DNA from: Escherichia coli
Lineage (GTDB): Bacteria; Pseudomonadota; Gammaproteobacteria; Enterobacterales; Enterobacteriaceae
Length of the DNA stretch: 64,000 nucleotides
Reading direction: 5' to 3' (one strand)
Assembly (NCBI RefSeq): GCF_044647545.1
Contig: NZ_CP172818.1
In this document: positions 13,282 through 37,028 of the stretch, in pieces
How the letters are laid out: every line of letters starts with the position of its first letter
Numbering within the stretch: position 1 is the first letter of the stretch
The notes under the pieces: generated by a model
What the model was told of the DNA's origin: nothing
Databases searched by the model: none
Seen by the model: only the letters and a program-made list of their open reading frames with translations
Made by a program: the position numbers and the translations under genes

Positions 13282-15006
13282 GTGCATTTCACGGGATGGA
13301 AGACCATGAAATTTATTGGGAAGCTGCTTCTCTACATTTTCATCGCTCTGTTAGTGGTGATCGCTAGCCTCTATTTTCTTCTGCAAACCCGCTGGGGAGC
13401 AGAACATATCAGCGCATGGGTTTCCGAGAATAGCGACTATCATCTGGCCTTCGGTGCGATGGATCACCGTTTTTCCGCGCCATCTCATATCGTGCTGGAG
13501 AACGTCACGTTTGGCCGTGATGGCCAGCCCGCGACCCTGGTAGCAAAAAGTGTCGACATTGCGCTAAGCAGTCGGCAACTGACCGAACCACGCCATGTCG
13601 ATACCATCCTGCTGGAAAACGGGACGCTGAATCTCACCGACCAGACCGCGCCGCTACCGTTCAAAGCCGATCGTCTGCAACTGCGTGATATGGCGTTTAA
13701 TAGCCCGAATAGCGAATGGAAACTGAGCGCGCAGCGGGTAAATGGCGGCGTGGTTCCGTGGTCACCAGAAGCCGGTAAAGTGCTGGGTACGAAGGCGCAG
13801 ATTCAGTTTAGTGCCGGATCGCTTTCGCTCAATGATGTTCCTGCCACCAATGTACTGATTGAAGGCAGTATTGATAACGATCGCGTTACGCTGACTAACC
13901 TGGGTGCCGACATCGCCCGCGGGACATTAACCGGAAACGCGCAGCGTAACGCCGACGGCAGCTGGCAAGTGGAAAATCTGCGGCTGGCGGATATCCGTCT
14001 ACAAAGCGAAAAATCGCTAACCGACTTCTTTGCGCCATTACGCTCTGTCCCGTCGTTGCAGATTGGTCGCCTGGAAGTCATCGACGCTCGTTTGCAAGGT
14101 CCGGACTGGGCGGTGACCGACCTCGATCTCAGCTTGCGCAACATGACCTTCAGTAAAGATGACTGGCAGACACAGGAAGGTAAACTGTCGATGAACGCCA
14201 GCGAGTTTATTTATGGCTCGCTGCATTTATTTGATCCGATTATAAACGCGGAATTTTCCCCGCAGGGCGTAGCACTGCGCCAGTTCACCAGCCGCTGGGA
14301 AGGGGGCATGGTCAGAACGTCAGGGAACTGGTTGCGTGACGGGAAAATGTTGATCCTTGATGATGCGGCAATTGCCGGACTGGAATATACCTTGCCAAAA
14401 AACTGGCAACAGTTGTGGATGGAAACGACACCCGGTTGGTTAAACAACCTGCAACTGAAGAGATTTAGCGCCAGCCGCAATCTGATCATTGATATCGACC
14501 CTGACTTCCCGTGGCAGCTCACCGCGCTCGATGGTTACGGTGCCAACCTGACGCTGGTTACCGATCATAAATGGGGCGTCTGGAGTGGTTCGGCGAATCT
14601 GAATGCCGCCGCCGCAACGTTTAATCGTGTTGATGTCCGTCGTCCGTCGCTGGCGCTGACCGCCAACAGCAGCACGGTGAATATCAGCGAACTGAGTGCA
14701 TTTACTGAAAAAGGCATTCTGGAAGCCACCGCCAGTGTTTCACAAACGCCACAACGTCAGACCCATATCAGCCTGAATGGACGCGGTGTGCCGGTGAATA
14801 TTTTGCAACAGTGGGGATGGCCTGAATTACCGTTGACTGGCGACGGCAATATTCAGCTTACTGCCAGTGGCGATATTCAGGCCAATGTCCCGCTGAAACC
14901 TACGGTTAGCGGGCAATTGCATGCCGTGAACGCCGCAAAGCAGCAAGTGACTCAAACCATGAATGCGGGCGTAGTTTCCAGTGGTGAAGTTACGTCGACG
15001 GAGTAG
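13282..15006 (+). CDS. yicH: AsmA-family protein YicH
   Basis: About 570-codon ORF with an N-terminal signal-anchor; exact start (13282 or 13306) not resolved. Confidence 0.85.
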   Translation: MHFTGWKTMKFIGKLLLYIFIALLVVIASLYFLLQTRWGAEHISAWVSENSDYHLAFGAMDHRFSAPSHIVLENVTFGRDGQPATLVAKSVDIALSSRQLTEPRHVDTILLENGTLNLTDQTAPLPFKADRLQLRDMAFNSPNSEWKLSAQRVNGGVVPWSPEAGKVLGTKAQIQFSAGSLSLNDVPATNVLIEGSIDNDRVTLTNLGADIARGTLTGNAQRNADGSWQVENLRLADIRLQSEKSLTDFFAPLRSVPSLQIGRLEVIDARLQGPDWAVTDLDLSLRNMTFSKDDWQTQEGKLSMNASEFIYGSLHLFDPIINAEFSPQGVALRQFTSRWEGGMVRTSGNWLRDGKMLILDDAAIAGLEYTLPKNWQQLWMETTPGWLNNLQLKRFSASRNLIIDIDPDFPWQLTALDGYGANLTLVTDHKWGVWSGSANLNAAAATFNRVDVRRPSLALTANSSTVNISELSAFTEKGILEATASVSQTPQRQTHISLNGRGVPVNILQQWGWPELPLTGDGNIQLTASGDIQANVPLKPTVSGQLHAVNAAKQQVTQTMNAGVVSSGEVTSTE

Positions 15007-15577
15007 GTGCAGTAAACATCAATCTCTTCACATTCTGCTCCCAGCAAATGATCAAGATGCAGCAAATCAGCAATATTCTCCGCGCTTAACATCACACCCG
15101 CGCCAGCACGCTTCTCAACATTTATTCTCCATTGCCCCAGCCATTGCTCAAGTAAACGTAAATCACGTTGAATGGTTTTTTCCGAAACATTTAAATAGCC
15201 GCAATCGTAACAATAGTCGTATATTCCCTTCGAGGTAAAAGGAATCGTAATAATCTGTTTTGTCGCGAGGTAATCATTTGCATTTTTACCCTTATCACAG
15301 ATTAAGAAGCCCTATGAGGAAGAGCTTCAGTTGCCATCTCTGAGGGTAAATATAAAGCAGAATAATTTCACAACAATACTCAAAATATGTCCGTAACCCG
15401 GACAGTGATAAAACAAAGCAAGGCGGTTAAGGGATATTTTTCAGCACAGATCACATTTTCGTGATGAATAATCGTGATCATGCTCGCAAATACGATGGAA
15501 GAAATATTTATTACCAGATGTGAGATTATTTACCGGACACGACACAAAACCATTCGTATCCGGCATTCTTCAATAGA

Positions 15578-17896
15578 TTACAACGTAATTGTCAGCGCAT
15601 TCCCTTGAGGCGTCACCACCAGCCCCAGCTCACTTTCAGCCTGCGAACCGCCTTGCAGACCATTTACTTTCACAACATTGCGCAAGCACAGCGTCCAGTT
15701 CTTCGCCACGCCCGCACCATTCACAGTAATTGTGTTGCCAGTACGCGCCGCTTTCAGGGTGAAAAGAACGGAACCATCGGCAGCGGGCACTTCACAGATG
15801 GCTTCATGCCCGTCTTGCAGATTAAAGAGCTGGAATGCCGTGCCTTCGTGCCACGCGTAATCGGGACGTTGCTCGTTGTTGCCCAGCGCCAGTAGGGTGT
15901 TATCACGCACATAAACGGGTAGACTCAGGAAGCCGTGCTGCTGTTTATGCCAGCGACTACCATCGAGTTCATCGTTGTGCCACAGGTGTGTCCAGCGACC
16001 TTCCGGCAAGTAGAACTGCACATCGCCCGCTTCAGTGAACACCGGAGCAACCATCACGTTATCGCCTAACATGTATTGACGGTCAAGGTAATCACAAGCC
16101 GGATCGTCCGGGAACTCCATCATCATGGCCCGCATCATCGGCGTACCCCGGGCGTTTGCACGTGCAGCTTCACGATACAGATACGGCATCATGCGGCATT
16201 TCAGTTGCGTGAAGAAGCGCACCACATCACAGGACTCATCATCATAGGCCCACGGCACACGATAAGATTTGCTGCCGTGTAAACGGCTATGGCTGGAGAG
16301 CAAACCAAACGCGCACCAGCGTTTGTAAACGTGCGCCGGAGCGGTATTCTCAAAGCCGCCGATATCGTGGCTCCAGAAGCCAAAACCAGAAAGGCCAATA
16401 GACAAACCACCGCGCAGGCTTTCCGCCATTGATTCGTAGTTAGCGTAACAGTCGCCACCCCAATGTACCGGGAATTTCTGCGCACCGACGGAGGCCGAGC
16501 GGGCAAACAAGACGGCTTCTTCCTCGCCAACGGTTTCCTTGAGCACGTTCCACACCAGTTCGTTGTAGATGTACGCATAATGGTTATGCATTTTCTGCGG
16601 ATCGGAACCATCAAACCATTGAACATCGGTTGGAATACGTTCGCCAAAGTCGGTCTTAAAGCAATCAACGCCCATCGCGACCAGACCTTTCAGTTTGTCG
16701 GCGTACCATTTGCAGGCATCCGGATTGGTAAAGTCATAAATCGCCAGACCTGGCTGCCATTTATCCCACTGCCACAGCGAACCGTCCGGGCGTTTGAGTA
16801 AATAACCTTTCTCTTGTAACTCTTTAAAGACAGGGGATTTTTGCCCGATATAGGGGTTAATCCAGACGCAGATTTTTAGCCCTTTCGCTTTCAGGCGGCG
16901 GATCATCCCTTCCGGGTCCGGGAAAGTCAGCGGGTCCCACTCAAAATCGCACCACTGGAAGGCTTTCATCCAGAAACAGTCAAAGTGGAAAACATGCAGC
17001 GGCAGATTGCGTTCCGCCATACCATCGATAAAGCTGTTTACCGTCGCTTCGTCGTAGTTGGTGGTAAATGAAGTGGTTAGCCACAGGCCGAAGGACCACG
17101 CGGGCGGCAGCGCCGGACGACCAGTAAAACGGGTATAACTATCAAGTACCGCTTTCGGCGTCGGGCCGTCGATAACAAAGTATTCGAGATATTCACTCTC
17201 AACGCTGAACTGCACTTTGGAGACTTTCTCCGATCCCACTTCAAAAGAGACGCATTGAGGATGATTGACCAGTACCCCATAACCACGGTTAGTCATATAG
17301 AACGGAATATTTTTATACGCCTGTTCAGTACTTGTGCCGCCGTCCCGGTTCCAGGTCTCTACCGTCTGGCCATTGCGCACCAGGGCAGTAAAGCGCTCTC
17401 CCAGACCGTAAACTGTTTCGCCAACGCCAAGATCCAGCCGCTCAAACATATAATTTCGTTGATTATTCGTGTCCTGCACGTAGCCATTATTTTTCACCTG
17501 ACTACCGGTAATACGTTCGCCGTTGCGCAGAAAATCCAGTGACCAGAACTCACCTTTGCTGACACGCGCGCTTAAGTTGCCACTTTTAAACTCAGCGTAA
17601 CGTTCTGTGTTTTCGATTGTGACCTTCACGTCCTGCAAAATATTGAGCGGATAATGAGGACCGTTATTCAGCGCCCCCTGAAAATGCTCAATCCGTACAC
17701 CGACAATACCTTCCTGTGGGGAGAAAAAGCGCAGCGTAAATAAAGGCGTATCAAGCTGCCAGGTACGTTCACGCACATCACGAGGGGCAGCATAGACCAC
17801 CATTTCATTACCCTGCTCTTCAACCTCGAACACCTGAAGCGGGTGAATCAAATTGAGGCCAGGTTGAATCAACCAGTTTCCGTCGCTAATTTTCAT
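15578..17896 (-). CDS. yicI: Alpha-xylosidase (glycoside hydrolase family 31)
   Basis: 772-codon ORF with GH31 catalytic region (WIDMNE-like and KTDFGE motifs). Confidence 0.95.
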
Positions 17897-17905
17897 TGCC
17901 GTTCC

Positions 17906-19288
17906 TTAGTTCTGCACTTCTTGAGAGGTGAATTGTTGCTGGCAACGGCGTTTGCCCTGGGCCAGCTGTTCCATAACGGTTTTCAGATTGTGCGTCGTGA
18001 GCGAGTAGTAGCGTTTAGCGATAATCGCGCTCAGCAAGTAACAGATCGCCGGAACAATCGTGAATAGCGCAATAATGATGCTAATCGTGGCGCTGTTCTG
18101 CGCTTTTTCTGCCGCATCATATCCGCCATAAGCCAGCATCCAGCCGATAAGAGCGCCGCCGAAGGCCAACCCCAGTTTGAGCACAAACAGCGTGCCAGCA
18201 AAACTGATCCCGGTCAGGCGTTTACCATTGCACCACTCGCCGTAATCGACGGTATCGGACATCATTACCCACTGGATAGGTGTCACCAGTTGATGCAACA
18301 CACCAATCACGAAGATGAAGACAAACATGGTGATGCTGGCCTGCATAGGAACAAAGAACATCGCGAGGCTAATCACTGCCAGCAGGGCGTTCGTCCACCA
18401 GAAGATAGTGACTTTACATTTCCAGTCGGTCAGCGGTTTCGCCAGTGCGGAACCAATCAGGTTACCCACGCAATAAGTGGTAAGAAAAGCGACAAACACT
18501 TCCGGCGTACCCAAAATCCATGTGACGTAATACATCATCGCCCCGCCGCGTACGCATACCGCCAGAATATTGAAAATGGTTAGTAAACCGACAATACGCC
18601 ACTGGTCGTTTTGCCAGATATCACGTAAATCTTCCCTCATAGACGTCGTTGTAGGTGGTGCTTCAACGCGTTCTTTAGTGGTGAAGAAACAAAATGCCAG
18701 CATCATGAATGCCACCACGGAAAGGACCGCGATACCGCCCTGGAAACCGAGTGGTTTATTATCACCACCAATTAAATTAACCAGCGGCATCATCAGAACA
18801 GTAGAGAGCATGCCTCCCGCGGTCGCCAGCACAAAACGCCAGGATTGCAGCGAGATACGCTGAGTCGGGTCATTGGTGATTACACCACCCAATGCGCAGT
18901 AAGGGATATTGACGATGGTATAAAGTAAGGTAAGTAGGGTGTAAGTAATTGCTGCATAGATCATTTTGCCGTTCATACTGAGATCTGGCGTGCTATAGGC
19001 CAGTACACAGACGATCCCGAATGGCAGTGCGCCAAACAGTACCCACGGACGAAATTTACCCCAGCGAGAGCGCGTTCGATCGGCCAACAACCCCATGCAA
19101 GGATCGGAAATCGCATCCAGTGCACGAGCGACCAAAAACATGGTTCCGACAAATCCGGCAGGAATGCCAAAAATATCGGTATAAAAGAACATCATATATA
19201 ACATTACGTTATCGAAAATAATGTGGCTGGCGGCGTCTCCCATGCCATAACCAATTTTCTCTTTAACGGACAACACTTCACTCTTCAT
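17906..19288 (-). CDS. yicJ: GPH-family sugar:cation symporter
   Basis: 460 codons from the ATG at 19288 (MKSEVLSVKEK) inside track ORF 17906-19345; co-oriented with yicI. Confidence 0.9.
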   Translation of the reverse strand: MKSEVLSVKEKIGYGMGDAASHIIFDNVMLYMMFFYTDIFGIPAGFVGTMFLVARALDAISDPCMGLLADRTRSRWGKFRPWVLFGALPFGIVCVLAYSTPDLSMNGKMIYAAITYTLLTLLYTIVNIPYCALGGVITNDPTQRISLQSWRFVLATAGGMLSTVLMMPLVNLIGGDNKPLGFQGGIAVLSVVAFMMLAFCFFTTKERVEAPPTTTSMREDLRDIWQNDQWRIVGLLTIFNILAVCVRGGAMMYYVTWILGTPEVFVAFLTTYCVGNLIGSALAKPLTDWKCKVTIFWWTNALLAVISLAMFFVPMQASITMFVFIFVIGVLHQLVTPIQWVMMSDTVDYGEWCNGKRLTGISFAGTLFVLKLGLAFGGALIGWMLAYGGYDAAEKAQNSATISIIIALFTIVPAICYLLSAIIAKRYYSLTTHNLKTVMEQLAQGKRRCQQQFTSQEVQN

Positions 19289-19580
19289 CTGCTTTTCCTT
19301 GATGCTATAGGGGTGCTGAGACCGATAACGCATTTTGTAAACCATCCCTGCGAGAGCGAATATTCCGATATCTGGTTATTAATTTATGATTCTTGTTTTA
19401 TGTGATCGTGGTAGCGTAAATTACGCTCATATATCATTGTAAAATATGGGTTTTATATGAATTATAATGCTTTCGTGATAATACGCTGCGTGTATTAGGC
19501 GGAAAAAACTGATCTGGGGGATGTAGAAACTCAAGGAAGTAGCTATAATGCGCCCCGCCTCCATGTAGCAATCGAGGCGC

Positions 19581-19675
19581 GGAAGATCGTCGTCTCCGGT
19601 GAGGCGGCTGGACTTCAAATCCAGTTGGGGCCGCCAGCGGTCCCGGGCAGGTTCGACTCCTGTGATCTTCCGCCA
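19581..19675 (+). tRNA. selC: tRNA-Sec (selenocysteine tRNA)
   Basis: 95-nt sequence GGAAGATCGTCGTCTCCGGTGAGGCGGCTGGACTTCAAATCCAGTTGGGGCCGCCAGCGGTCCCGGGCAGGTTCGACTCCTGTGATCTTCCGCCA with long variable arm and anticodon-loop ACTTCAAAT (UCA anticodon). Confidence 0.97.
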
Positions 19676-20313
19676 ATTTGCCTCTTCTGACGTTCTCCAA
19701 CCCCTTGTAATACTGTCAATCCAGATATTTTCTACTGCTCAATATTCAATCGGCTTCAGGAATACCTGATCAAAAGTTTTGTGATGGACGATGAGCGACT
19801 GAAGAATCCGCCTGTCGGTTCTTCTGTCCTCGAACGCATCCGCGATATTCGCGCCAGCATGCGCCGTGTTTATTTGCAGGTGATTTGCCCCCCTGCTGAC
19901 TCTCAGCCAACTGTATCGCCATTAAGGTGAAGATGTTGTTTTACACGCCCCAGAACACCCTTTTTTTATACGACGATTCTATTCCTTTAACCGCTGGCGA
20001 AAAAAACTGACCTGTAAACTTCACCAATAATCAGACTGCCATCAAGATTAATTTGTTCATTTAATATATCAAATAAATTTGTTTTATTTTTACTATCAAA
20101 AATAGCTCATTGTCTTACTATAATTAATATATAAATTCGGTGATTAACTCTTAACATGCTTTTGCTAATAATCTCAATTGCTGGCCCTATAATATTGCGC
20201 TAGCATTGCTTTCTGGTTGTATCAGCGATACTCAAAAAATCTTAATACAATACTCATTCGACTGGTACTTATTTGTAACTCAGTTATATTTTGTCGCCCG
20301 GTGATTCAGAAGA

Positions 20314-21498
20314 ATGCAAAAAACGGCTACCACTCCATCAAAAATACTTGATCTCACTGCCGCGGCATTTTTACTTGTCGCCTTTCTGACGGGTATTGCG
20401 GGCGCTCTCCAGACTCCCACCCTAAGTATATTCCTCGCAGATGAACTGAAAGCCCGTCCTATAATGGTAGGTTTTTTCTTCACCGGTAGCGCTATTATGG
20501 GAATTCTGGTCAGTCAATTTCTGGCAAGGCACTCCGATAAACAAGGCGACCGTAAATTACTGATCCTGCTATGTTGCTTATTTGGAGTGTTGGCCTGCAC
20601 TCTTTTTGCGTGGAATCGCAACTACTTCATTCTCCTCTCTACGGGCGTACTTCTGAGTAGTTTTGCTTCCACTGCAAACCCGCAAATGTTCGCCCTCGCC
20701 CGTGAACACGCCGACAGAACAGGCCGTGAGACGGTCATGTTCAGTACATTTTTACGTGCTCAGATCTCGCTTGCCTGGGTTATCGGGCCACCGCTCGCTT
20801 ATGAGCTGGCAATGGGATTTAGTTTTAAAGTGATGTATCTCACCGCAGCCATCGCATTTGTTGTTTGCGGGCTGATAGTCTGGTTGTTTTTGCCATCAAT
20901 ACAAAGAAATATTCCTGTCGTTACCCAACCCGTAGAAATTTTACCCTCCATCCATAGAAAGCGGGATACACGGCTACTTTTTGTGGTCTGTTCAATGATG
21001 TGGGCGGCGAATAATCTCTACATGATAAATATGCCGCTATTTATTATTGATGAACTGCATCTAACCGATAAACTGGCTGGAGAAATGATTGGTATTGCTG
21101 CCGGTCTGGAAATTCCGATGATGTTAATCGCAGGCTATTACATGAAACGTATTGGCAAGCGACTATTAATGCTCATTGCTATCGTGAGTGGTATGTGTTT
21201 TTACGCCAGCGTACTCATGGCGACGACTCCGGCAATTGAGCTGGAATTGCAAATTCTAAATGCCATTTTCCTTGGTATTCTCTGTGGTATCGGCATGCTT
21301 TATTTTCAGGATCTGATGCCTGAAAAAATAGGCTCTGCGACAACGTTATATGCAAATACCTCACGCGTCGGCTGGATTATCGCCGGCTCTGTTGACGGAA
21401 TTATGGTTGAAATCTGGAGCTACCACGCGTTGTTCTGGCTGGCGATAGGGATGTTGGGTATTGCGATGATTTGCCTGCTGTTTATTAAAGATATTTAG
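20314..21498 (+). CDS. setC: MFS sugar efflux transporter
   Basis: 394-codon 12-TM MFS protein directly downstream of selC, as in K-12. Confidence 0.9.
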   Translation: MQKTATTPSKILDLTAAAFLLVAFLTGIAGALQTPTLSIFLADELKARPIMVGFFFTGSAIMGILVSQFLARHSDKQGDRKLLILLCCLFGVLACTLFAWNRNYFILLSTGVLLSSFASTANPQMFALAREHADRTGRETVMFSTFLRAQISLAWVIGPPLAYELAMGFSFKVMYLTAAIAFVVCGLIVWLFLPSIQRNIPVVTQPVEILPSIHRKRDTRLLFVVCSMMWAANNLYMINMPLFIIDELHLTDKLAGEMIGIAAGLEIPMMLIAGYYMKRIGKRLLMLIAIVSGMCFYASVLMATTPAIELELQILNAIFLGILCGIGMLYFQDLMPEKIGSATTLYANTSRVGWIIAGSVDGIMVEIWSYHALFWLAIGMLGIAMICLLFIKDI

Positions 21499-21608
21499 CT
21501 CACCAGTCTGGGCTAAGAAAAATCGGCGTGGCGCAAACAGAGCCATCCTCGCCATTTTTGCTATCATGCCTGCATACATAAACGACAAAACAGTATGCAG
21601 AGGGAAAA

Positions 21609-22532
21609 ATGGGTTCCACCAGAAAGGGGATGCTGAACGTTCTGATTGCCGCCGTGTTGTGGGGAAGTTCAGGGGTCTGCGCGCAATACATCATGGAGCA
21701 AAGCCAGATGTCGTCGCAGTTTTTGACTATGACGCGTTTGATATTCGCCGGTTTGATTCTGCTGACGCTGTCATTTGTTCATGGCGATAAAATCTTTTCT
21801 ATTATTAACAATCACAAAGATGCCATTAGTCTGCTGATTTTTTCCGTGGTTGGCGCGCTAACCGTACAGCTCACTTTTTTGCTAACCATCGAAAAATCGA
21901 ACGCAGCCACGGCAACGGTGCTGCAATTCCTCTCACCGACGATTATCGTCGCCTGGTTCTCACTGGTGCGTAAATCCCGCCCGGGCATTCTGGTTTTTTG
22001 CGCTATTTTGACATCGCTGGTCGGGACTTTTTTATTGGTGACACACGGTAATCCGACGTCATTATCGATCTCTCCTGCCGCGTTATTCTGGGGAATTGCC
22101 TCGGCATTTGCTGCGGCATTCTATACCACCTATCCCTCAACGCTGATTGCCCGCTATGGCACGTTACCGGTCGTCGGCTGGAGTATGCTCATTGGTGGTC
22201 TGATCCTGCTGCCATTTTATGCCAGACAAGGGACAAATTTTGTGGTTAATGGCAGTTTGATTCTGGCGTTTTTTTATTTGGTGGTCATTGGTACGTCCCT
22301 GACATTTAGTCTGTACCTGAAAGGAGCACAATTAATTGGCGGTCCAAAAGCCAGCATTTTAAGCTGTGCAGAACCATTAAGTAGCGCGCTGCTCTCTTTG
22401 CTGTTACTGGGGATCACATTCACATTACCGGACTGGCTGGGAACGCTGCTGATTCTGTCATCAGTGATTTTGATTTCAGTGGATTCCCGTCGCCGCGCCA
22501 GAAAAATAAATCGTCCGGCGCGGGATGAGTGA
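21609..22532 (+). CDS. yicL: EamA/DMT-family inner membrane transporter
   Basis: 307-codon membrane protein with duplicated EamA-type halves. Confidence 0.9.
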
Positions 22533-22535
22533 GAA

Positions 22536-23354
22536 TTACCAGCCAGGCACCGCGCCACCGTTAAAGATGGTTTCTGCCGCTTTAGCGACTTCGGATGATT
22601 GATAAGATTGCAGAAATTCCTTCACGTTTTCTGCATTCTTATTATCTTCCCGTGCTACCAGAATGTTCACATACGGCGAATTTTTATCTTCAATAAATAC
22701 GCTGTCGTGCACCGGAGAAAGTCCGGTCTGCTGAATGTAAGTGGTGCTGATAATCGCCACATCAACTTTGGGATCATCCAGTACGCGCGGGAGCTGCGCC
22801 CCCTCGAGTTCCATAATCTGCAAATGACGAGGATTATCGGTTATATCCAGCGCGGTAGGTAATAACCCTTTTCCCTCTTTCAGAATAATTAGCTTCTCTT
22901 TTTGCAACAGTAAAAGCGCGCGACCAAGGTTGGTCGGGTCGTTGGGGATCGCCACTGTCGCGCCTTCTTTTATTTGCGCCACGGTTTTGATTTTTTTGGA
23001 ATAACCCGCCATAGGGAAGACAAACGTATTTCCCACCGCTACCAGTTTATAACCATGCGCCTGATTATCTTGTTCAAGAAAGGGCCGATGCTGGAAGACA
23101 TTCGCATCAAGCTCGCCATGATTTGTCGCATCGTTCGGTAGCAACGAACCGCTAAATCCTACCAGTTCAACATCGAGGCCATATTTCTCTTTTGCCACCT
23201 TTTTAGCGACTTCCGCGACATCTTGTTCTGCGCCATTTATAACGCCAACTTTAATGTGTTTTGCATCGCTGCTACTCTGGTCGCAACCTGCCAGCAGAAT
23301 TCCTGCCAGCAATAATGCGGCCCCCGCCCGTAGATGATGTGTTGTCAGTTTCAT
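22536..23354 (-). CDS. nlpA: Lipoprotein 28 (methionine-binding NlpA/MetQ family)
   Basis: 272-codon ORF with lipobox LLAGC in the signal peptide. Confidence 0.92.
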   Translation of the reverse strand: MKLTTHHLRAGAALLLAGILLAGCDQSSSDAKHIKVGVINGAEQDVAEVAKKVAKEKYGLDVELVGFSGSLLPNDATNHGELDANVFQHRPFLEQDNQAHGYKLVAVGNTFVFPMAGYSKKIKTVAQIKEGATVAIPNDPTNLGRALLLLQKEKLIILKEGKGLLPTALDITDNPRHLQIMELEGAQLPRVLDDPKVDVAIISTTYIQQTGLSPVHDSVFIEDKNSPYVNILVAREDNKNAENVKEFLQSYQSSEVAKAAETIFNGGAVPGW

Positions 23355-23562
23355 TTTTTATCCTTTTTTTAATCATTAACTGACTATAATGGCAAGAACA
23401 CTACGATTTAAAAAACGAAAAGCTATCGAATAGAAGAAAAAGGTATAAAAAACTGGCACTTCTTACTGACCACGCAAACACCTTTCGTACAGCATGATGA
23501 GAGCGGTAAAAGCAAACTACACTTATGCTTCATTCGATGCACATTTGCAGAAGGTTGCCGCT

Positions 23563-23856
23563 ATGAAGCCAACGATGCTACTCATGATTACCGTATTCCT
23601 GACTTTTCCAGCCATTTCTCAGGCCGAGTCGCCATTCAGCTCGCTACAGTCGGCAAAAGAGAAAACCACGGTATTGCAAGATTTACGTAAAATTTGCACG
23701 CCACAGGCGTCATTATCAGACGAAGCGTGGGAAAAATTAATGTTGTCTGATGAGAGTAACAAACAACATATCCGCGAAGCTATTGTGGCGATGGAGCGTA
23801 ATAATCAGAATAACTACTGGGAAGCGCTGGGTAAGGTGGAATGCCCGGATATGTGA
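23563..23856 (+). CDS. yicS: Small secreted protein YicS
   Basis: 97 codons from ATG 23563 (MKPTMLLMITVFLTFPAISQA signal peptide) inside track ORF 23494-23856. Confidence 0.8.
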   Translation: MKPTMLLMITVFLTFPAISQAESPFSSLQSAKEKTTVLQDLRKICTPQASLSDEAWEKLMLSDESNKQHIREAIVAMERNNQNNYWEALGKVECPDM

Positions 23857-23894
23857 ACCGCTACAACTACTGACCAACGCTTCTTTACCTGATA

Positions 23895-25085
23895 TCAGGA
23901 TTTCTTCATTTTCACCTTTGCGGTGACCAATAACGCCGTCAGCAACATCAATGTGCCGGACAACATCAACGGCGAAGTCAGACCAATATTATCCAGCGCA
24001 TAACCGCCGATTGCCGCGCCACAGGTATTAGCAAGCTGAATAACCGCCACCTGAATAGACCCGGCTTTTTCTGCCTGATCGGCCAGTGAGCGGGTGATCC
24101 ACGTTGACCAGCCGACAGGAACCAATGCAAAAGTTAGCCCCCAGATAATCGCCACGCCGGTAGCAACGATTTTATCGCTTCCCCACAACGTCAGCACCAA
24201 CGCACTCACAGCCAGTATTAACGGCGCGCCTGCTAAGGCCAGTTTTACCGAACGTTTAAGAATGAACGACGAAAGCGACGTACCAATAAAGCTGGCGATA
24301 CCAAAACTCAACAGCACCAGCGTTAAGCCATCCACGCCGAATCCCGCCAGGTTCATATACACCGGGCGAATATACGTGAAGAAAGCAAACTGCCCGGCGA
24401 AAGACATGAAGATGGCGATCATCCCTGCCATCACACCCGGACGTTGTAATAAGCGGAAAGTATTTTGTTTCTGATGCGAGGGTTCGCCTGGCAGCGAAGG
24501 CAATGATTTGATAATCCAGAAAATACACAGCACGCCCATCACCGCCGCCGCATTAAAGACATTGCGCCAACCGATAAGCTCGCCTAAAAAACTGCCCAAC
24601 GGTGCGGCAATCACCAGCGCAATAGAAACCGCGCCGAAGATCACCGACAGCGCCTTCGGCACCGTACGCGGCGGTACCAGACGCATGGTCAGCGACGCCG
24701 ACATCGCCCAGAACCCACCCAGCGCCAGCCCCAGACAGGCACGACCGATTAAAAGCAAACTGAATGAGTTAGCAAAGGAAACCAGCAAGCAGGAGAGCGT
24801 CAGCAAAACGGCAAACAAAATAACAACATAGCGGCGGTCAGTGGCCTGAATGGTCTGGGTAATAAACAAACTGGCAAACATTGCCACAAAGGCGGTCACG
24901 GTCACCGATTGCCCGGCAACCCCTTCCGAAATGCCTAAATCCTGGGCCATTGGCGTCAACAAACTGACGGGCAAAAACTCAACGATAATCAGACAGGCGA
25001 CGCAAAACGCCACCGAGAAAACGGCTGACCAGTTCGGTCGGGTGATGGCATCCGCGCCGCGGTTTTCGGCAATAAATTCACTCAT
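23895..25085 (-). CDS. nepI: MFS purine ribonucleoside efflux pump
   Basis: 396 codons from the ATG at 25085 ([10 protein letters not shown]) inside track ORF 23895-25133. Confidence 0.9.
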
Positions 25086-25339
25086 GGTGTTACCCGTGGC
25101 ATGTTTCAGGGGAAAAGCCGACCACTTTAACATTGAAATGTGTGACGCATTTAACGTTTTTGCAACTTTTACGGTGTTGTGGGAAAAGTTCGAGGCTGCT
25201 CGAAGAAATAAAAATCATAGGGCAAGGTGATATGCATTTTCGCAATGGGGTTGGGAATAAGGGATAAAGTATTCATTGTGATATACTTTAATAACAGGAT
25301 CTCAACGATATACGCGTGTTTAAAACCAAATATTTTGCA

Positions 25340-25985
25340 AGGGAAGCCAGGTCTCAGCAAAAAAGAAAAAAAGTTGCCGGTTTAGAAACGGAACAAGGTA
25401 AAGCTGATGTACTTGGTGGTGGCGTTTTTAAAAAGCGCCTTCACCGAAATCGTGAGCGTGCAATTATTCTGCAAAAGGGGAAAAAAATTGTTTTTACACT
25501 TTTTTATATAAAAAAAAGGATATGTCAAAAATAAATAGCAAGAAACGGCTTGGTTTCCGTAAACTCCAAAACATTTTCCCCTCCCTACCAAAACCCAAAC
25601 AAAAAAAAAGATTAAAACAAAAAAACAAACAGAAATCCCCTAGACCCGAAAAAAAAAAATAAAAAACCCCCGCTTTTGGGCATTCCCAACCCCGCGGCCC
25701 GGGTTTCCCCCCCCCATGCTTTTTCTCCCCAAAAAAAACGTACTTTTACAAAACCCCCCCCACCAGCACGCAAAAACTACAACCCGGTGAAAAAAAAAAA
25801 ACACGGGAAAAAAAAAAAAGGAAGCCACCCCCCTTCGCCCCCATCCCAAAACCAGCGTTTCAACAGCACAAAAAAAGGAAAAGGGGCGCAAACCCCCCAG
25901 GGGTTCTTTAAAAATCCCCAGCATGGTGGAAAAAAAAGGGGGGGGGGGGGGGGAGTAAAAAAAAAAGAAAAAAGTCATACCAGCC
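25340..25985. other. Homopolymer-rich low-complexity block, non-coding; probable artefact or non-native insertion
   Basis: Composition degrades from ordinary sequence into long A, C and G runs (for example G16 at 25938-25953, A-runs of 10-14); no frame resembles a real protein; boundaries approximate. Confidence 0.7.
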
Positions 25986-25987
25986 CC

Positions 25988-26062
25988 AATACCGGATGCG
26001 GCGTGAACGCCTAATCCACCCTACAGGTCAGGCGCGGTCTGTAGGCTGATAAGACGAAGCGG
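25988..26062. repeat. REP (repetitive extragenic palindromic) element, partly degenerate
   Basis: CCGGATGCGGCGTGAACGCC ... GTAGGCTGATAAGACG closely resembles E. coli REP units, with several mismatches in the first unit. Confidence 0.7.
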
Positions 26063-32749: not shown

Positions 32750-34255
32750 TTAGACATAGCGTTGAGGTAGAGAAACGCTGACACGCGTGCCGTGCAAACA
32801 GGAGATGGTCAAGGTGCCGCCCAGCGCCGTTACGCGCTCGCGCATTCCGGTGAGGCCAAAACCTTGTTGCCCGGAACCCGGCGGCAAACCGCTGCCATCG
32901 TCTTCAATTACCAGCATCAACCGTTCATCCTGCTGCCAGCCTTGCAGGGTGACCGCGCTGGCATCGGCATGTTTCACAATGTTGTTCAACCCTTCCTGGC
33001 AGACGCGAAACAGCGTCACGCGCTGGTTTTCGCTTAACGCTGATTCATCGATTCGCCATTCGAGATGACTGACAATGCCGCGCCCTTCCAGCTCCATTTC
33101 CCGCATCAGTGAGCGGATGGCCTGCTCCAGGGTGAGATCATCCAGCTGGCGCGGACGTAACCGCCCTAACAAACGGCGCACCGCATCGTAAACACCCAGC
33201 GACAGTTGTTCGATGAGCTGCCCGCTCTGCTTCACGCTGGCGTTATCTGCCGCCAGCCGCTGAACAATACCTGCTTGAGTACGAATAGCAGTGATGGTCT
33301 GACCGATATCGTCGTGCAGCTCACGCGCCACATCACGGCGCACGCTCTCTTCAGTTTCTAACAAACGTTCAGCCAGATGCTGATTGCGCGCTAGTTCCTT
33401 TTGCAGCGACTGGTTAAGTTCACGCAACCGCTGGATGCCTGCGCCCAGTAACAACCCTGTCAGACTTTGCACCAGCAGCGAGAGCAATAAATCCACCGAA
33501 TGATCGCGCCAGGTTTGACTGGCGATCAGCGCGATGGCGTTCATCAACGTCGCAATCAGCGCCCCTTGCCAGCCGTAGTGCCAGGCCAGCGCGATAATCG
33601 GCAGCGCCAGGCAGAATGGCGTAAAGCGCGACAGTTCGTCCGGCAATCCCAACTGGAGCCAGAGACTGATAACAAACAGCAGCAAGTACCAGACCAGATG
33701 CCGCCCGCGCCAGTTGATCGGTTGAGAAACTAACGACGGCCCGAGCGGCAGCCAGATGTTATTGGCGAGATAGTGCCAGAACACCAGACATATCGGGGCC
33801 AGCGTCAGGCCGCCAGTTAAAGTCAGCAACAGCGCATTCCACGACTCTTTCCCGTGCCAAAGCCAGGGCAGCGACTGCAACAACGCCGCCGCCGTCAGCG
33901 CCGCACCCTGTAACAGCAAGGTGCGCCAGTCACGTTGATGGCGATAGCGCGAGATCAGCGCCACGGGCAATAACGTCAGTAAACTACCGATCATCAATAA
34001 GGAGAAATGGGTTAAACCGACCGCCTGCATTAGCCAGTAAATCAGCAGCCACTCCGCACCCAGTAGCACCGGCCAGTATCCGCGCGGGCATTGCAGCATT
34101 AGCCCTAGCCGCAGGCCAAACGGAAATAACAGCACCGCCATATCAGGGCGCTCAACAAGGTGCAGGCTGATACTCCACAGGCAAAACCATGCGGCAGAGA
34201 AGATAAAAAAGCAGGCAATAACGGTAATTAAGCGAGAGAAAAACGTCTTCATCAC
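32750..34255 (-). CDS. uhpB: Sensor histidine kinase UhpB
   Basis: About 500-codon protein with N-terminal multi-TM domain and C-terminal HisKA_3/HATPase region (HDDIGQ motif). Confidence 0.93.
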
Positions 34256-34842
34256 CAGCCATCAAACATGCGGCGCGCCAGTTCAACGTCGTTACTGACG
34301 CCCAGTTTTTCCATCAGGTTAGCGCGATGGACGTGTACCGTTTTCGGTGACAAGCCCAGTTCGGCGGCAATCTCTTTCACCGCCATTCCTTGCGCCAGTT
34401 TTTCCGCCACCTGGCGTTCGCGTTTGGTCAGCGGGTCCTGGCGACCGGATGCCAGTTTAATGGCAATATCCGGCGTCAGATAACAGCCGCCCGTGGCAAC
34501 CGTATGCACCGCAGCAATCAGTTCGTCAGGGCTACAACGCTTGGAGAGAAAGCCGCGCGCCCCCGCGTTAAGCGCCTGCTCAACCAGCGCCGGACTGTCA
34601 TGAACAGAGAGCATAATCGTCGCCATACCTTTCGGCAGCTGGCTTAGCAGCTCCAGACCGGAGATATCGGGCATGGAGATATCGCAAATACACACCTGCA
34701 CACCGCGCCCCGGCAGCCCCGCCAACGCCTCGCGCCCCGAACCAAACTCGGCAACTACCTGCAAATCAGGTTCCAGCCCCAGCAGCTGCGCAAAGCCGGA
34801 GCGGACGATGAGGTGATCGTCTATAAGTGCAACGGTGATCAT
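34252..34842 (-). CDS. uhpA: NarL/FixJ-family response regulator UhpA
   Basis: 196 codons from the ATG at 34842 ([10 protein letters not shown]); receiver domain plus LuxR-type HTH; overlaps uhpB by 4 bp. Confidence 0.93.
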
Positions 34843-35149
34843 GATTGGGTCCTGGCGGATAAAAAACGCGCATACCTTAACGATAAGCGCGATGTTGTTC
34901 AAGTTGGATATGGGGTATGTATTCTTAATGATGTTGTCTTATCTCAAAACTTACGAAAGTAACGTTGTAGTTTATTCGAAAAACGAATTATTTGTAGTTC
35001 GATTGCAATATTCCTGAAAAATTTCTCCTCCTTCGAAATCTTTTCAGTAACAAAGATCATCCAAAACCTATAATCTTCACGGAACCTCATTAAGAGATCA
35101 TCCACGAGTCGTTATGAATATAATCCTCACCGTATTCGATAAAAGAAAT

Positions 35150-36737
35150 AAAAAATAAAACTAACAATCTATTGTTTTAAAAAAAAAAGGTTGGGAAAGA
35201 AGGGAAAAACAAGAAAAAAAATTTTTTCCCAAGAAAAAAAAAAACCGGGTAACAACAAACCGGGAAAAAAAAAAAAGGTTCCTGATAAAATACCCCCTAT
35301 CAACCGACAGAAACCTTGAACAACATAATACATTACCTATTCCTGAAATACTGAACAAGAAATAATTTTCGTTTTTTCCAACAATTAAAAATTCCAAAAA
35401 ATAAATCAGCAAAAAAATTCAAAAAAAATTCGGAAATTTTTCCAACCACAAAAAACTTATCCCAAAATCAGATGGCATTAATTTTAACCAAAAAAAGAAA
35501 ATGACCCCCCAATTTCGCCAAAGAAAAAAGGAAAAACCCCAAAAAAAATTTTTAAAATTAAAAAAAAAAAGAAATAATTAAGAATAATGATTTCTATATA
35601 TTAATGGCAACAAACAAATATTAAATTACAACACAACACAAACAAACTTTAAGTAAATTACTATACAAATCAATAACAATAACACCTTAACACACAAAAC
35701 AACCTACATTTCACAGTCATAACGAAAAAAATCATAAAACCACTCAATAAATAAAACACCGAAACAAATATAAAAAACATAAAAAAAAAAAAAAAAAAAA
35801 AACAAGAAAAAAAAAAAAAATAAAATAAAAATAAAAAAAAAAACGAAACGAAAAAATAATAAACAATAAAAGACCCCCACAAACAAACAAATCAAAACTA
35901 CACTCACTCCCCCTGATTGATTAAAAAAACATCTCTCAGATATAAAATACATAAAACAAACAAAAAAATAAATGAAAAAAAACAACAAATAAATAATTTA
36001 ATAATAAAAATAAAAATATTACGCAACAACAACTATCAACAAAAAAAATAAAAAAAAAAAACAAAGATAAGAAACGTAAGAAAAAAAAAAAAAAAAAAAA
36101 AAAAGACGAAAAAAAAAAAAAACTATGAATCCGAACAAGTAAAAAAAAAAAAAAAGAACAAACAATAACCAATCAAAAAAAAAAAAATAAATAAAAAAAA
36201 AAAATTCATTTAAAAAATGAAAAAAACACAAAAAAATAGAAAACAAAAAAAATAAAACAAACGGAAAAAAAAAAAAAAAAAAAAGAAGACTGAAGAAAAA
36301 AAATACTAAAAAAATAATTAATATTAAACCAAAAATAAAAAAAAATAAAAAATAAAAAACTAAAAAAACACAAAAAATCAACAAAAAATAAAAAAAAATA
36401 AACAAACCAAAAAAAAAAAAAAAAAAAAACGAAAACATTAAAATATATAACAAAATAAAAACTAAAAAAACAAAAAACAAACAAAAAAAAAAAAGAAATA
36501 ACAATAAAAAAAAAATTATAAACAACCAAAACAAATATAAAAAAAAAAACGAAAACAAAAAAAAATTAAAAAAAAAAAGAAAAATATAAAAAAAAAGAAA
36601 AAAGAAGAAAAATACAAAAAACAAAAAAATAAAAAAAAAAAAAAACACAAAAAAAAAAAAGAAAAACGAAAACAAGAAAAAAAAGAAAAATGTAAAATCA
36701 GCAAAATTCAGAAAATTTGAAAGAGAAAAAACCAAAA
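35150..36737. other. About 1.6 kb A-rich low-complexity block between uhpA and ilvN, non-coding; probable artefact or non-native insertion
   Basis: Long poly-A runs (up to about 23 nt) with sparse C, G and T; minus-strand track ORFs are poly-Phe/Leu artefacts of the T-rich complement; ends exactly at the ilvN stop codon; start approximate. Confidence 0.75.
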
Positions 36738-37028
36738 TTACTGAAAAAACACCACGATCTTGTTAAACATCGTCGGATTAGACTGATTACGCTGCACTTT
36801 CACCACATCTTCCAGCTTATCGATTTGGCTTATCACCTACTCCAGACGCTGGTCATCCTTGACCAGTAGCCAGATATGGCTTTTGTCGCTGTCCTGAATC
36901 GGCAGGCAGAGAATGCCTTCAACGTTAAAAGCGCGACGGGCAAAAAGCCCACAAACGTGAGTCATTACGCCCGGATGGTTGCGAACGGTGAGTTCGAGAA
37001 TCACGTTGTCATGAGTTGTGTTTTGCAT
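36738..37028 (-). pseudogene. ilvN: Acetolactate synthase I small subunit, reading frame interrupted by an in-frame TAG at codon 64
   Basis: First 63 codons match IlvN; TAG at 36837-36839; the same frame continues [32 protein letters not shown] to the TAA at 36738-36740. Confidence 0.8.

Follow-up and report, generated by a model that had tools for sequence, protein, structure and literature searches.

An unoccupied tRNA-Sec attachment site followed by a RhuM-family gene remnant and setC in an Escherichia coli chromosome

The window, that is, the whole stretch of 64,000 nucleotides of Escherichia coli DNA that was analysed (contig NZ_CP172818.1, assembly GCF_044647545.1), contains one tRNA gene according to ARAGORN, the tRNA-SeC gene selC with the anticodon TCA. 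The Rfam model RF01852 recognises it with 83.8 bits (gathering score 47), and its sequence is base for base the same as that of selC in K-12 and in strain SCEC020022. The search for other RNA genes between positions 19000 and 21000 with Rfam, at E-values of up to 1, returned tRNA-Sec alone. The gene is followed by a spacer of 638 bp (19676–20313) and by setC, so that the original prediction, in which selC was followed directly by about 640 bp of intergenic DNA and setC, was exact in its coordinates. The product of setC matches the Pfam family MFS_1 (E = 1.5e-40), and PGAP gives the gene this name in the matching genomes; setC is missing from ST131, and its last ~175 bp are left in EPEC E2348/69. 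The features of the locus are collected in Table 1.

Table 1. Features recognised at the selC locus, with positions counted from the first nucleotide of the window.
Feature	Position	Strand	Basis
selC, tRNA-Sec (anticodon UCA), intact	19581–19675	+	ARAGORN, Rfam RF01852, identity to known selC
Attachment-site core TTCGACTCCTGTGATCTTCCGCCA, 24 nt, 3' end of selC	19652–19675	+	Single copy in the window
Conserved flank directly 3' of selC	19676–19726	+	Beside attR in SCEC020022, beside selC in O157:H7 TR01
Variable segment with the rhuM fossil and setC, 43.6% GC	19691–21579	.	Identity break with ST131
RhuM-family pseudogene fragment, yicT of K-12, ~19% of the gene	19754–19915	+	Pfam PF13310, PGAP, tblastn
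AT-rich region before setC, presumed setC promoter region	20000–20313	.	29.6% GC
setC, MFS sugar efflux transporter, accessory, 394 aa	20314–21498	+	Pfam MFS_1, PGAP 'setC'

The spacer had been described as AT-rich, and this is true of it as a whole (38.4% GC) and of the part nearest to setC (29.6% GC over 20000–20313), where it does not hold is a block of 51.9% GC at 19754–19915. In 100-bp windows, the GC content of the spacer falls as low as 17%. The very AT-rich ~300 bp upstream of setC form the putative promoter region of this gene and, judging by their composition, may also be a likely target of silencing by nucleoid proteins. When the spacer was scanned for promoters and terminators, the counts were no higher than those in shuffled sequences, and the two weak sigma-70-like matches found in 20000–20313 did not exceed the number expected from shuffles. 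The same AT-rich DNA carries an IS1 element in strain 142, the nearest relative, at the place that corresponds to window positions 20058–20066; the 9-bp overlap fits a target duplication, and the window itself has no insertion sequence there.

The GC-richer block of the spacer encodes, in frame 1, the peptide LQEYLIKSFVMDDERLKNPPVGSSVLERIRDIRASMRRVYLQV, which matches the Pfam family PF13310 (Virulence_RhuM) (E = 6.8e-12; 45.7 bits, cut-off 33.7) and covers profile positions 50–98 of 252. PGAP calls the same interval 'rhuM: RhuM family protein, incomplete' at the N- and C-terminus in all annotated genomes that were inspected, and in the annotation of MG1655 it is the pseudogene yicT (b4653). 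A counterpart of the fragment is found in the ST131 strain 4224, where an intact RhuM gene of 345 aa starts 53 bp after selC. When this protein was compared with the spacer by tblastn, its residues 121–194 were aligned with 56% identity (E = 7e-22); the alignment is interrupted by gaps of 8 and 3 codons and by a stop, and the similarity is no longer convincing beyond about residue 185. There is no full-length RhuM reading frame at the locus, as the fragment has no start codon context and carries two in-frame deletions and the stop. Because only about 60 of 345 codons are left, with these deletions and the stop, the fragment is probably non-functional. The search of NCBIfam with the fossil peptide gave no match, and a Pfam 'Exc' excisionase-like match on the same peptide was dismissed (E = 0.072; 13.5 bits, with a cut-off of 23). 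A literature search for yicT returned unrelated matches only.

These results bear on the statement that no foreign genes follow selC, which has to be withdrawn. The spacer contains no intact ORF of at least 60 aa and its setC-side half is, as given above, 29.6% GC, both of which would fit a simple AT-rich intergenic region free of foreign DNA. Against such a reading stand the RhuM match in the 52% GC block, which exceeds the gathering score of Pfam, and the pseudogene annotation of this block in K-12 and by PGAP; together, the Pfam match, the yicT annotation and the tblastn alignment to the ST131 RhuM protein refute it, and we give it almost no credence.

At the DNA level, the fossil is 76.6% identical to rhuM of ST131, a value well under that of the flanks, and it is thus not derived from the ST131 allele. 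At least 80% of a query spanning the fossil (19676–20020) is present in 3621 genomes, while in 843 genomes the best match to this query lies in the 60–80% identity band, and the examples listed among the latter are intact RhuM-family genes. The gene rhuM itself is known from SPI-3, a Salmonella pathogenicity island at selC (PMC9251186; PMC3680342). The fossil would be the trace of a RhuM gene that this lineage once had immediately downstream of selC, where ST131 and, within SPI-3, Salmonella still have one.

The analysis of gene order showed that the locus is collinear with an unoccupied reference. Positions 19501–21700 align with MG1655 in a single uninterrupted piece at 97.8% identity, the longer interval 18859–25179 is also aligned as one piece, and the order selC-setC-yicL-nlpA-yicS-nepI is that of K-12. 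The description of the site as being in the unoccupied, K-12-like state is therefore borne out by the gene order from selC to nepI, which is the same as in MG1655. The strain is nevertheless not K-12 but belongs to another lineage, together with FDAARGOS_497 and strain 142, which are its nearest complete genomes and 100% identical here: positions 19501–21700 agree fully with strain 142 apart from the IS1 of that strain, and the start of the spacer (19676–20020) agrees fully with FDAARGOS_497. The selC site is empty in both.

In the original prediction, an integrase and a duplicated tRNA 3' end had also been ruled out, and both parts stand. The 394-aa tyrosine recombinase that lies next to selC in SCEC020022 found nothing better than E = 3.5 when it was compared by tblastn with the 64-kb window. 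Pattern searches for a duplicate of the selC 3' end over the whole 64 kb matched selC alone, whether a 26-mer and a 19-mer were used with up to 3 mismatches or a 15-mer with up to 2. To look for a degenerate att repeat, the terminal 45 nt of selC together with 25 nt of flank were aligned locally to the downstream DNA, and no score rose above the best of 100 shuffles. What the search for an attR-like repeat or an integrase remnant downstream did bring to light, in place of either, was the remnant of a cargo gene of the island type. One direct repeat of 19 nt (19498–19516 and 19996–20014, 17 of 19 positions identical) brackets selC and the fossil; it was rejected as a chance occurrence, since K-12 does not conserve its second copy, and ST131 and E2348/69 lack it.

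The locus thus combines an intact tRNA-Sec gene, a single selC 3' end and collinearity with the unoccupied reference into setC, and what an integrase-borne island would bring, namely a P4-type tyrosine integrase at most a few hundred bp from selC, a direct repeat at the far boundary and kilobases of non-backbone genes before setC/yicL, was not found; the gap between selC and setC is 638 bp. The missing integrase and repeat are insufficient as proof in themselves because selC of EPEC E2348/69 is occupied and has neither, and given this exception it is the collinearity with reference genomes that is decisive. We conclude, with a probability of roughly 90%, that the locus is an unoccupied attachment site of the K-12 type at tRNA-Sec, followed by an old, decayed RhuM-family remnant and the accessory gene setC. 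An empty site and one from which an island was precisely excised cannot be told apart.

Tyrosine integrases that target tRNA genes recombine the island's copy of the tRNA 3' end with the chromosomal copy, by which the tRNA is regenerated and a repeat is left. The occupied loci used for comparison are very unlike the window. In SCEC020022, which served as the positive control, the tyrosine recombinase begins 300 bp past selC and is followed by the rest of a 38.5-kb island with a 24-nt attR; its cargo includes IS elements, an Ag43 adhesin and CbtA/YeeU toxin-antitoxin genes, among others. This genome has two copies of TTCGACTCCTGTGATCTTCCGCCA. One forms the 3' end of selC; the other lies 38.5 kb further on, immediately ahead of the rhuM fossil, and runs into the sequence that adjoins selC in the window. 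In the O157:H7 strain TR01, the integrase begins 196 bp after selC and island DNA starts past window position 19726. In E2348/69, the LEE lies at selC with an IS3 remnant only, and it has taken the place of the fossil and of setC up to the short remnant mentioned above. The stretch after selC that is shared with ST131 ends earlier than the flank shared with TR01, at position 19690.

According to established knowledge and the present comparison, the ~24 nt that close selC are where integrase-borne islands recombine; integration regenerates the tRNA and places another copy of the 24 nt at the distal boundary of the island. The rhuM fossil is situated beyond this crossover, and in occupied genomes it is thus displaced from selC along with setC. 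Indeed, present-day integrase-borne islands are inserted between selC and the fossil, and the fossil and setC stay on the far side. As the attachment core is single here, no integrase-borne selC island of this type is present, and as it is both single and intact, the site should still be able to receive one. For this strain, it means that selC carries no LEE-, PAI-I-, SHI-2- or CP4-like island and should remain available for integration.

The frequency of this arrangement was estimated from 5426 complete E. coli genomes. The interval 19400–20500 of the window was found in one place, with selC and setC contiguous, in 2467 of them (~45%), which makes the empty K-12-type arrangement the commonest single state and the locus an ordinary one. 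In the remaining genomes, the match to this interval is split or ends early. Where it is split, the match on the setC side begins at query positions 253–255, corresponding to window positions 19652–19654, at the first base of the 24-nt repeat; where it ends early, it stops at query position 291, i.e., 15 nt beyond selC.

A separate question is whether an island present in the real genome could have been dropped from the assembly. Accessory DNA is garbled elsewhere in the window (about 25350–25990 and 34904–36737), and the eip island and a PTS cluster are missing in comparison with relatives whose backbone is 100% identical, so assembly quality is a general concern for the window. The selC stretch itself, though, matches independent genomes perfectly: the selC sites of FDAARGOS_497 and strain 142 are likewise empty, and the full identity of 19501–21700 with strain 142 is not interrupted by any low-complexity patch. 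The loss of an island in assembly is consequently very improbable at this locus.

The two patches themselves are degenerate, rich in homopolymers and resemble garbled versions of real accessory genes. The first, between nepI and yicN, corresponds to a RelE/ParE toxin and HTH antitoxin pair that is absent from K-12; it contains homopolymer runs of A and C as well as G16 and is 56–80% identical to the toxin-antitoxin genes of ST131 and WB61 until the identity abruptly returns to 100% at position 26021. The second is a 1834-bp insert between uhpA (34252–34902) and ilvN (36738–37028). Its first ~470 bp are a gapped, 75–81% identical copy of a two-gene AT-rich islet, and its later part decays to 75–81% A, the whole being about half of the true length. 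In its normal form of 3.4–3.5 kb, this islet is found at the same site in about 1105 of the 5426 E. coli genomes (3.4 kb in WB61), and its hypothetical proteins of 489 and 160 aa gave no match in Pfam or PADLOC. Relatives with a 100% identical backbone have normal sequence at both patches, which are probably artefacts of sequence quality or assembly, and findings made within them warrant suspicion. Codon 64 of ilvN (36837–36839, minus strand) is an in-frame TAG in place of the CAG of other E. coli and would shorten the small subunit of acetolactate synthase to 63 of 96 aa; as this stop lies 100 bp from the second patch, it may be an error.

Two further sites in the window differ from those of the relatives. 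The region has a second island site, selC-B, at the yicS-nepI junction (23857–23895); in EAEC 042 it is the eip locus. Like K-12, the window has no island there, and the same junction holds an eip/eilA/iatC island in strain 142, FDAARGOS_497 and WB61, whose flanks are 100% identical. In FDAARGOS_497, the eip island is ~18 kb long and encodes homologues of type III translocators and an inverse autotransporter. Upstream of selC, a BglG-family antiterminator gene is left with its first 89 codons at 15017–15284, between yicH (13282–15006) and yicI (15578–17896), where 6.7 kb of a sugar-isomerase/aldolase/PTS-fructose cluster beside yicI has been deleted, with a 3-bp microhomology at 15017–15019. 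The cluster is present in E2348/69 and, for the parts compared, in ST131, strain 142 and FDAARGOS_497. Genomes of K-12 and of the O157 type do not have even the BglG-family remnant.

The comparison with ST131 revealed that the fossil and setC lie within one variable segment. The window and ST131 are 98–99% identical as far as position 19690; the same level of identity resumes at 21580, with 29 bp left to yicL. Between these points, the window has 1889 bp, while ST131 has 2290 bp with the intact rhuM and a gene for a hypothetical protein of 165 aa. The part of the two segments that can be aligned is rhuM only, at the 76.6% already mentioned; outside it, no homology of the spacer to the ST131 segment was found. 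The 165-aa gene of strain 4224 has a GC content of 34%, lies between the intact rhuM and yicL in the place of setC, and its product gave no match in Pfam or PADLOC. The segment is therefore accessory and is replaced in ST131 by a different segment that also bears rhuM.

Two origins of this segment may be considered. According to the first, a rival to the reading given above, the site would not be truly empty, the segment being the decayed rest of an ancient selC island whose integrase and far-end repeat were later lost. The segment is accessory, has a GC content of 43.6% against 50.6% for the window, starts 15 nt past the tRNA and is exchanged in ST131 for another segment with rhuM, a cargo gene of the selC-located SPI-3 of Salmonella, all of which agrees with such an origin. 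It contains no integrase fragment, though, and no degenerate repeat at its right boundary; modern islands insert between selC and the segment and so treat it as backbone, and setC, yicL and nlpA are termed 'backbone genes' in PMC7058095. We regard descent from an ancient island as possible but doubtful.

The second origin, which we put forward with still more reserve as a rather unlikely one, is that the DNA just after selC could be a small, integrase-independent swap site, at which alternative cassettes are exchanged around a RhuM (PDC-S05-like) gene. The cassettes may be the intact rhuM with the 165-aa gene in ST131, and the fossil with setC in most other lineages. What the comparison shows is two alternative segments, whose rhuM parts are 76.6% identical. 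If such a swap site were real, the fossil would be a sign that the lineage of the window has lost an anti-phage gene. The intact RhuM protein of ST131, WP_001280586.1, matches PDC-S05, a candidate phage-defence family of PADLOC, with E = 2.8e-173. One RhuM-domain gene of this family is reported to have reduced the plating of T7 and T5 about 1000-fold, the gene assayed being a different member from both the E. coli and the Salmonella rhuM (preprint 10.1101/2024.09.26.614923).

The unoccupied locus can be set beside five known systems. One is selC-yicT-setC of K-12 MG1655 (b3658, b4653, b3659), with which it shares order, spacing, selC and the RhuM fragment, with 23 differences over selC and the spacer; in K-12, PGAP notes a stop inside the fossil. 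The selC region of EAEC 042 and ST69 consists of selC, the selC-A site, setC-yicL-nlpA, the selC-B (eip) site and nepI (PMC7058095). The backbone of the window is the same, but both of its sites are empty: there is no selC 3' repeat, and yicS abuts nepI as in K-12, whereas its closest relatives carry selC-B. As yicT, the rhuM pseudogene of PGAP and the selC-A/selC-B layout have all been annotated or published before, none of these elements is new.

With the integrase-borne selC islands (the CP4-like island of SCEC020022, the O157:H7 element and the LEE of E2348/69), the window has the same tRNA gene and downstream flank in common, and it differs from them in having no integrase, no 24-nt attR and no island genes. 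Salmonella SPI-3, in which sugR is followed by rhuM and further genes (PMC9251186), among them rmbA and misL, also has a RhuM-family gene downstream of tRNA-Sec, as does the window. In relation to PDC-S05, a family defined by a single RhuM-domain gene, the homologue of ST131 is intact after selC, whereas the surviving ~19% of the gene in the window is a dead fragment unable to encode the protein. A spacer that looks empty may therefore still hold a recognisable gene fossil, and through yicT/rhuM the selC locus of E. coli is tied to SPI-3 and to a candidate defence family.
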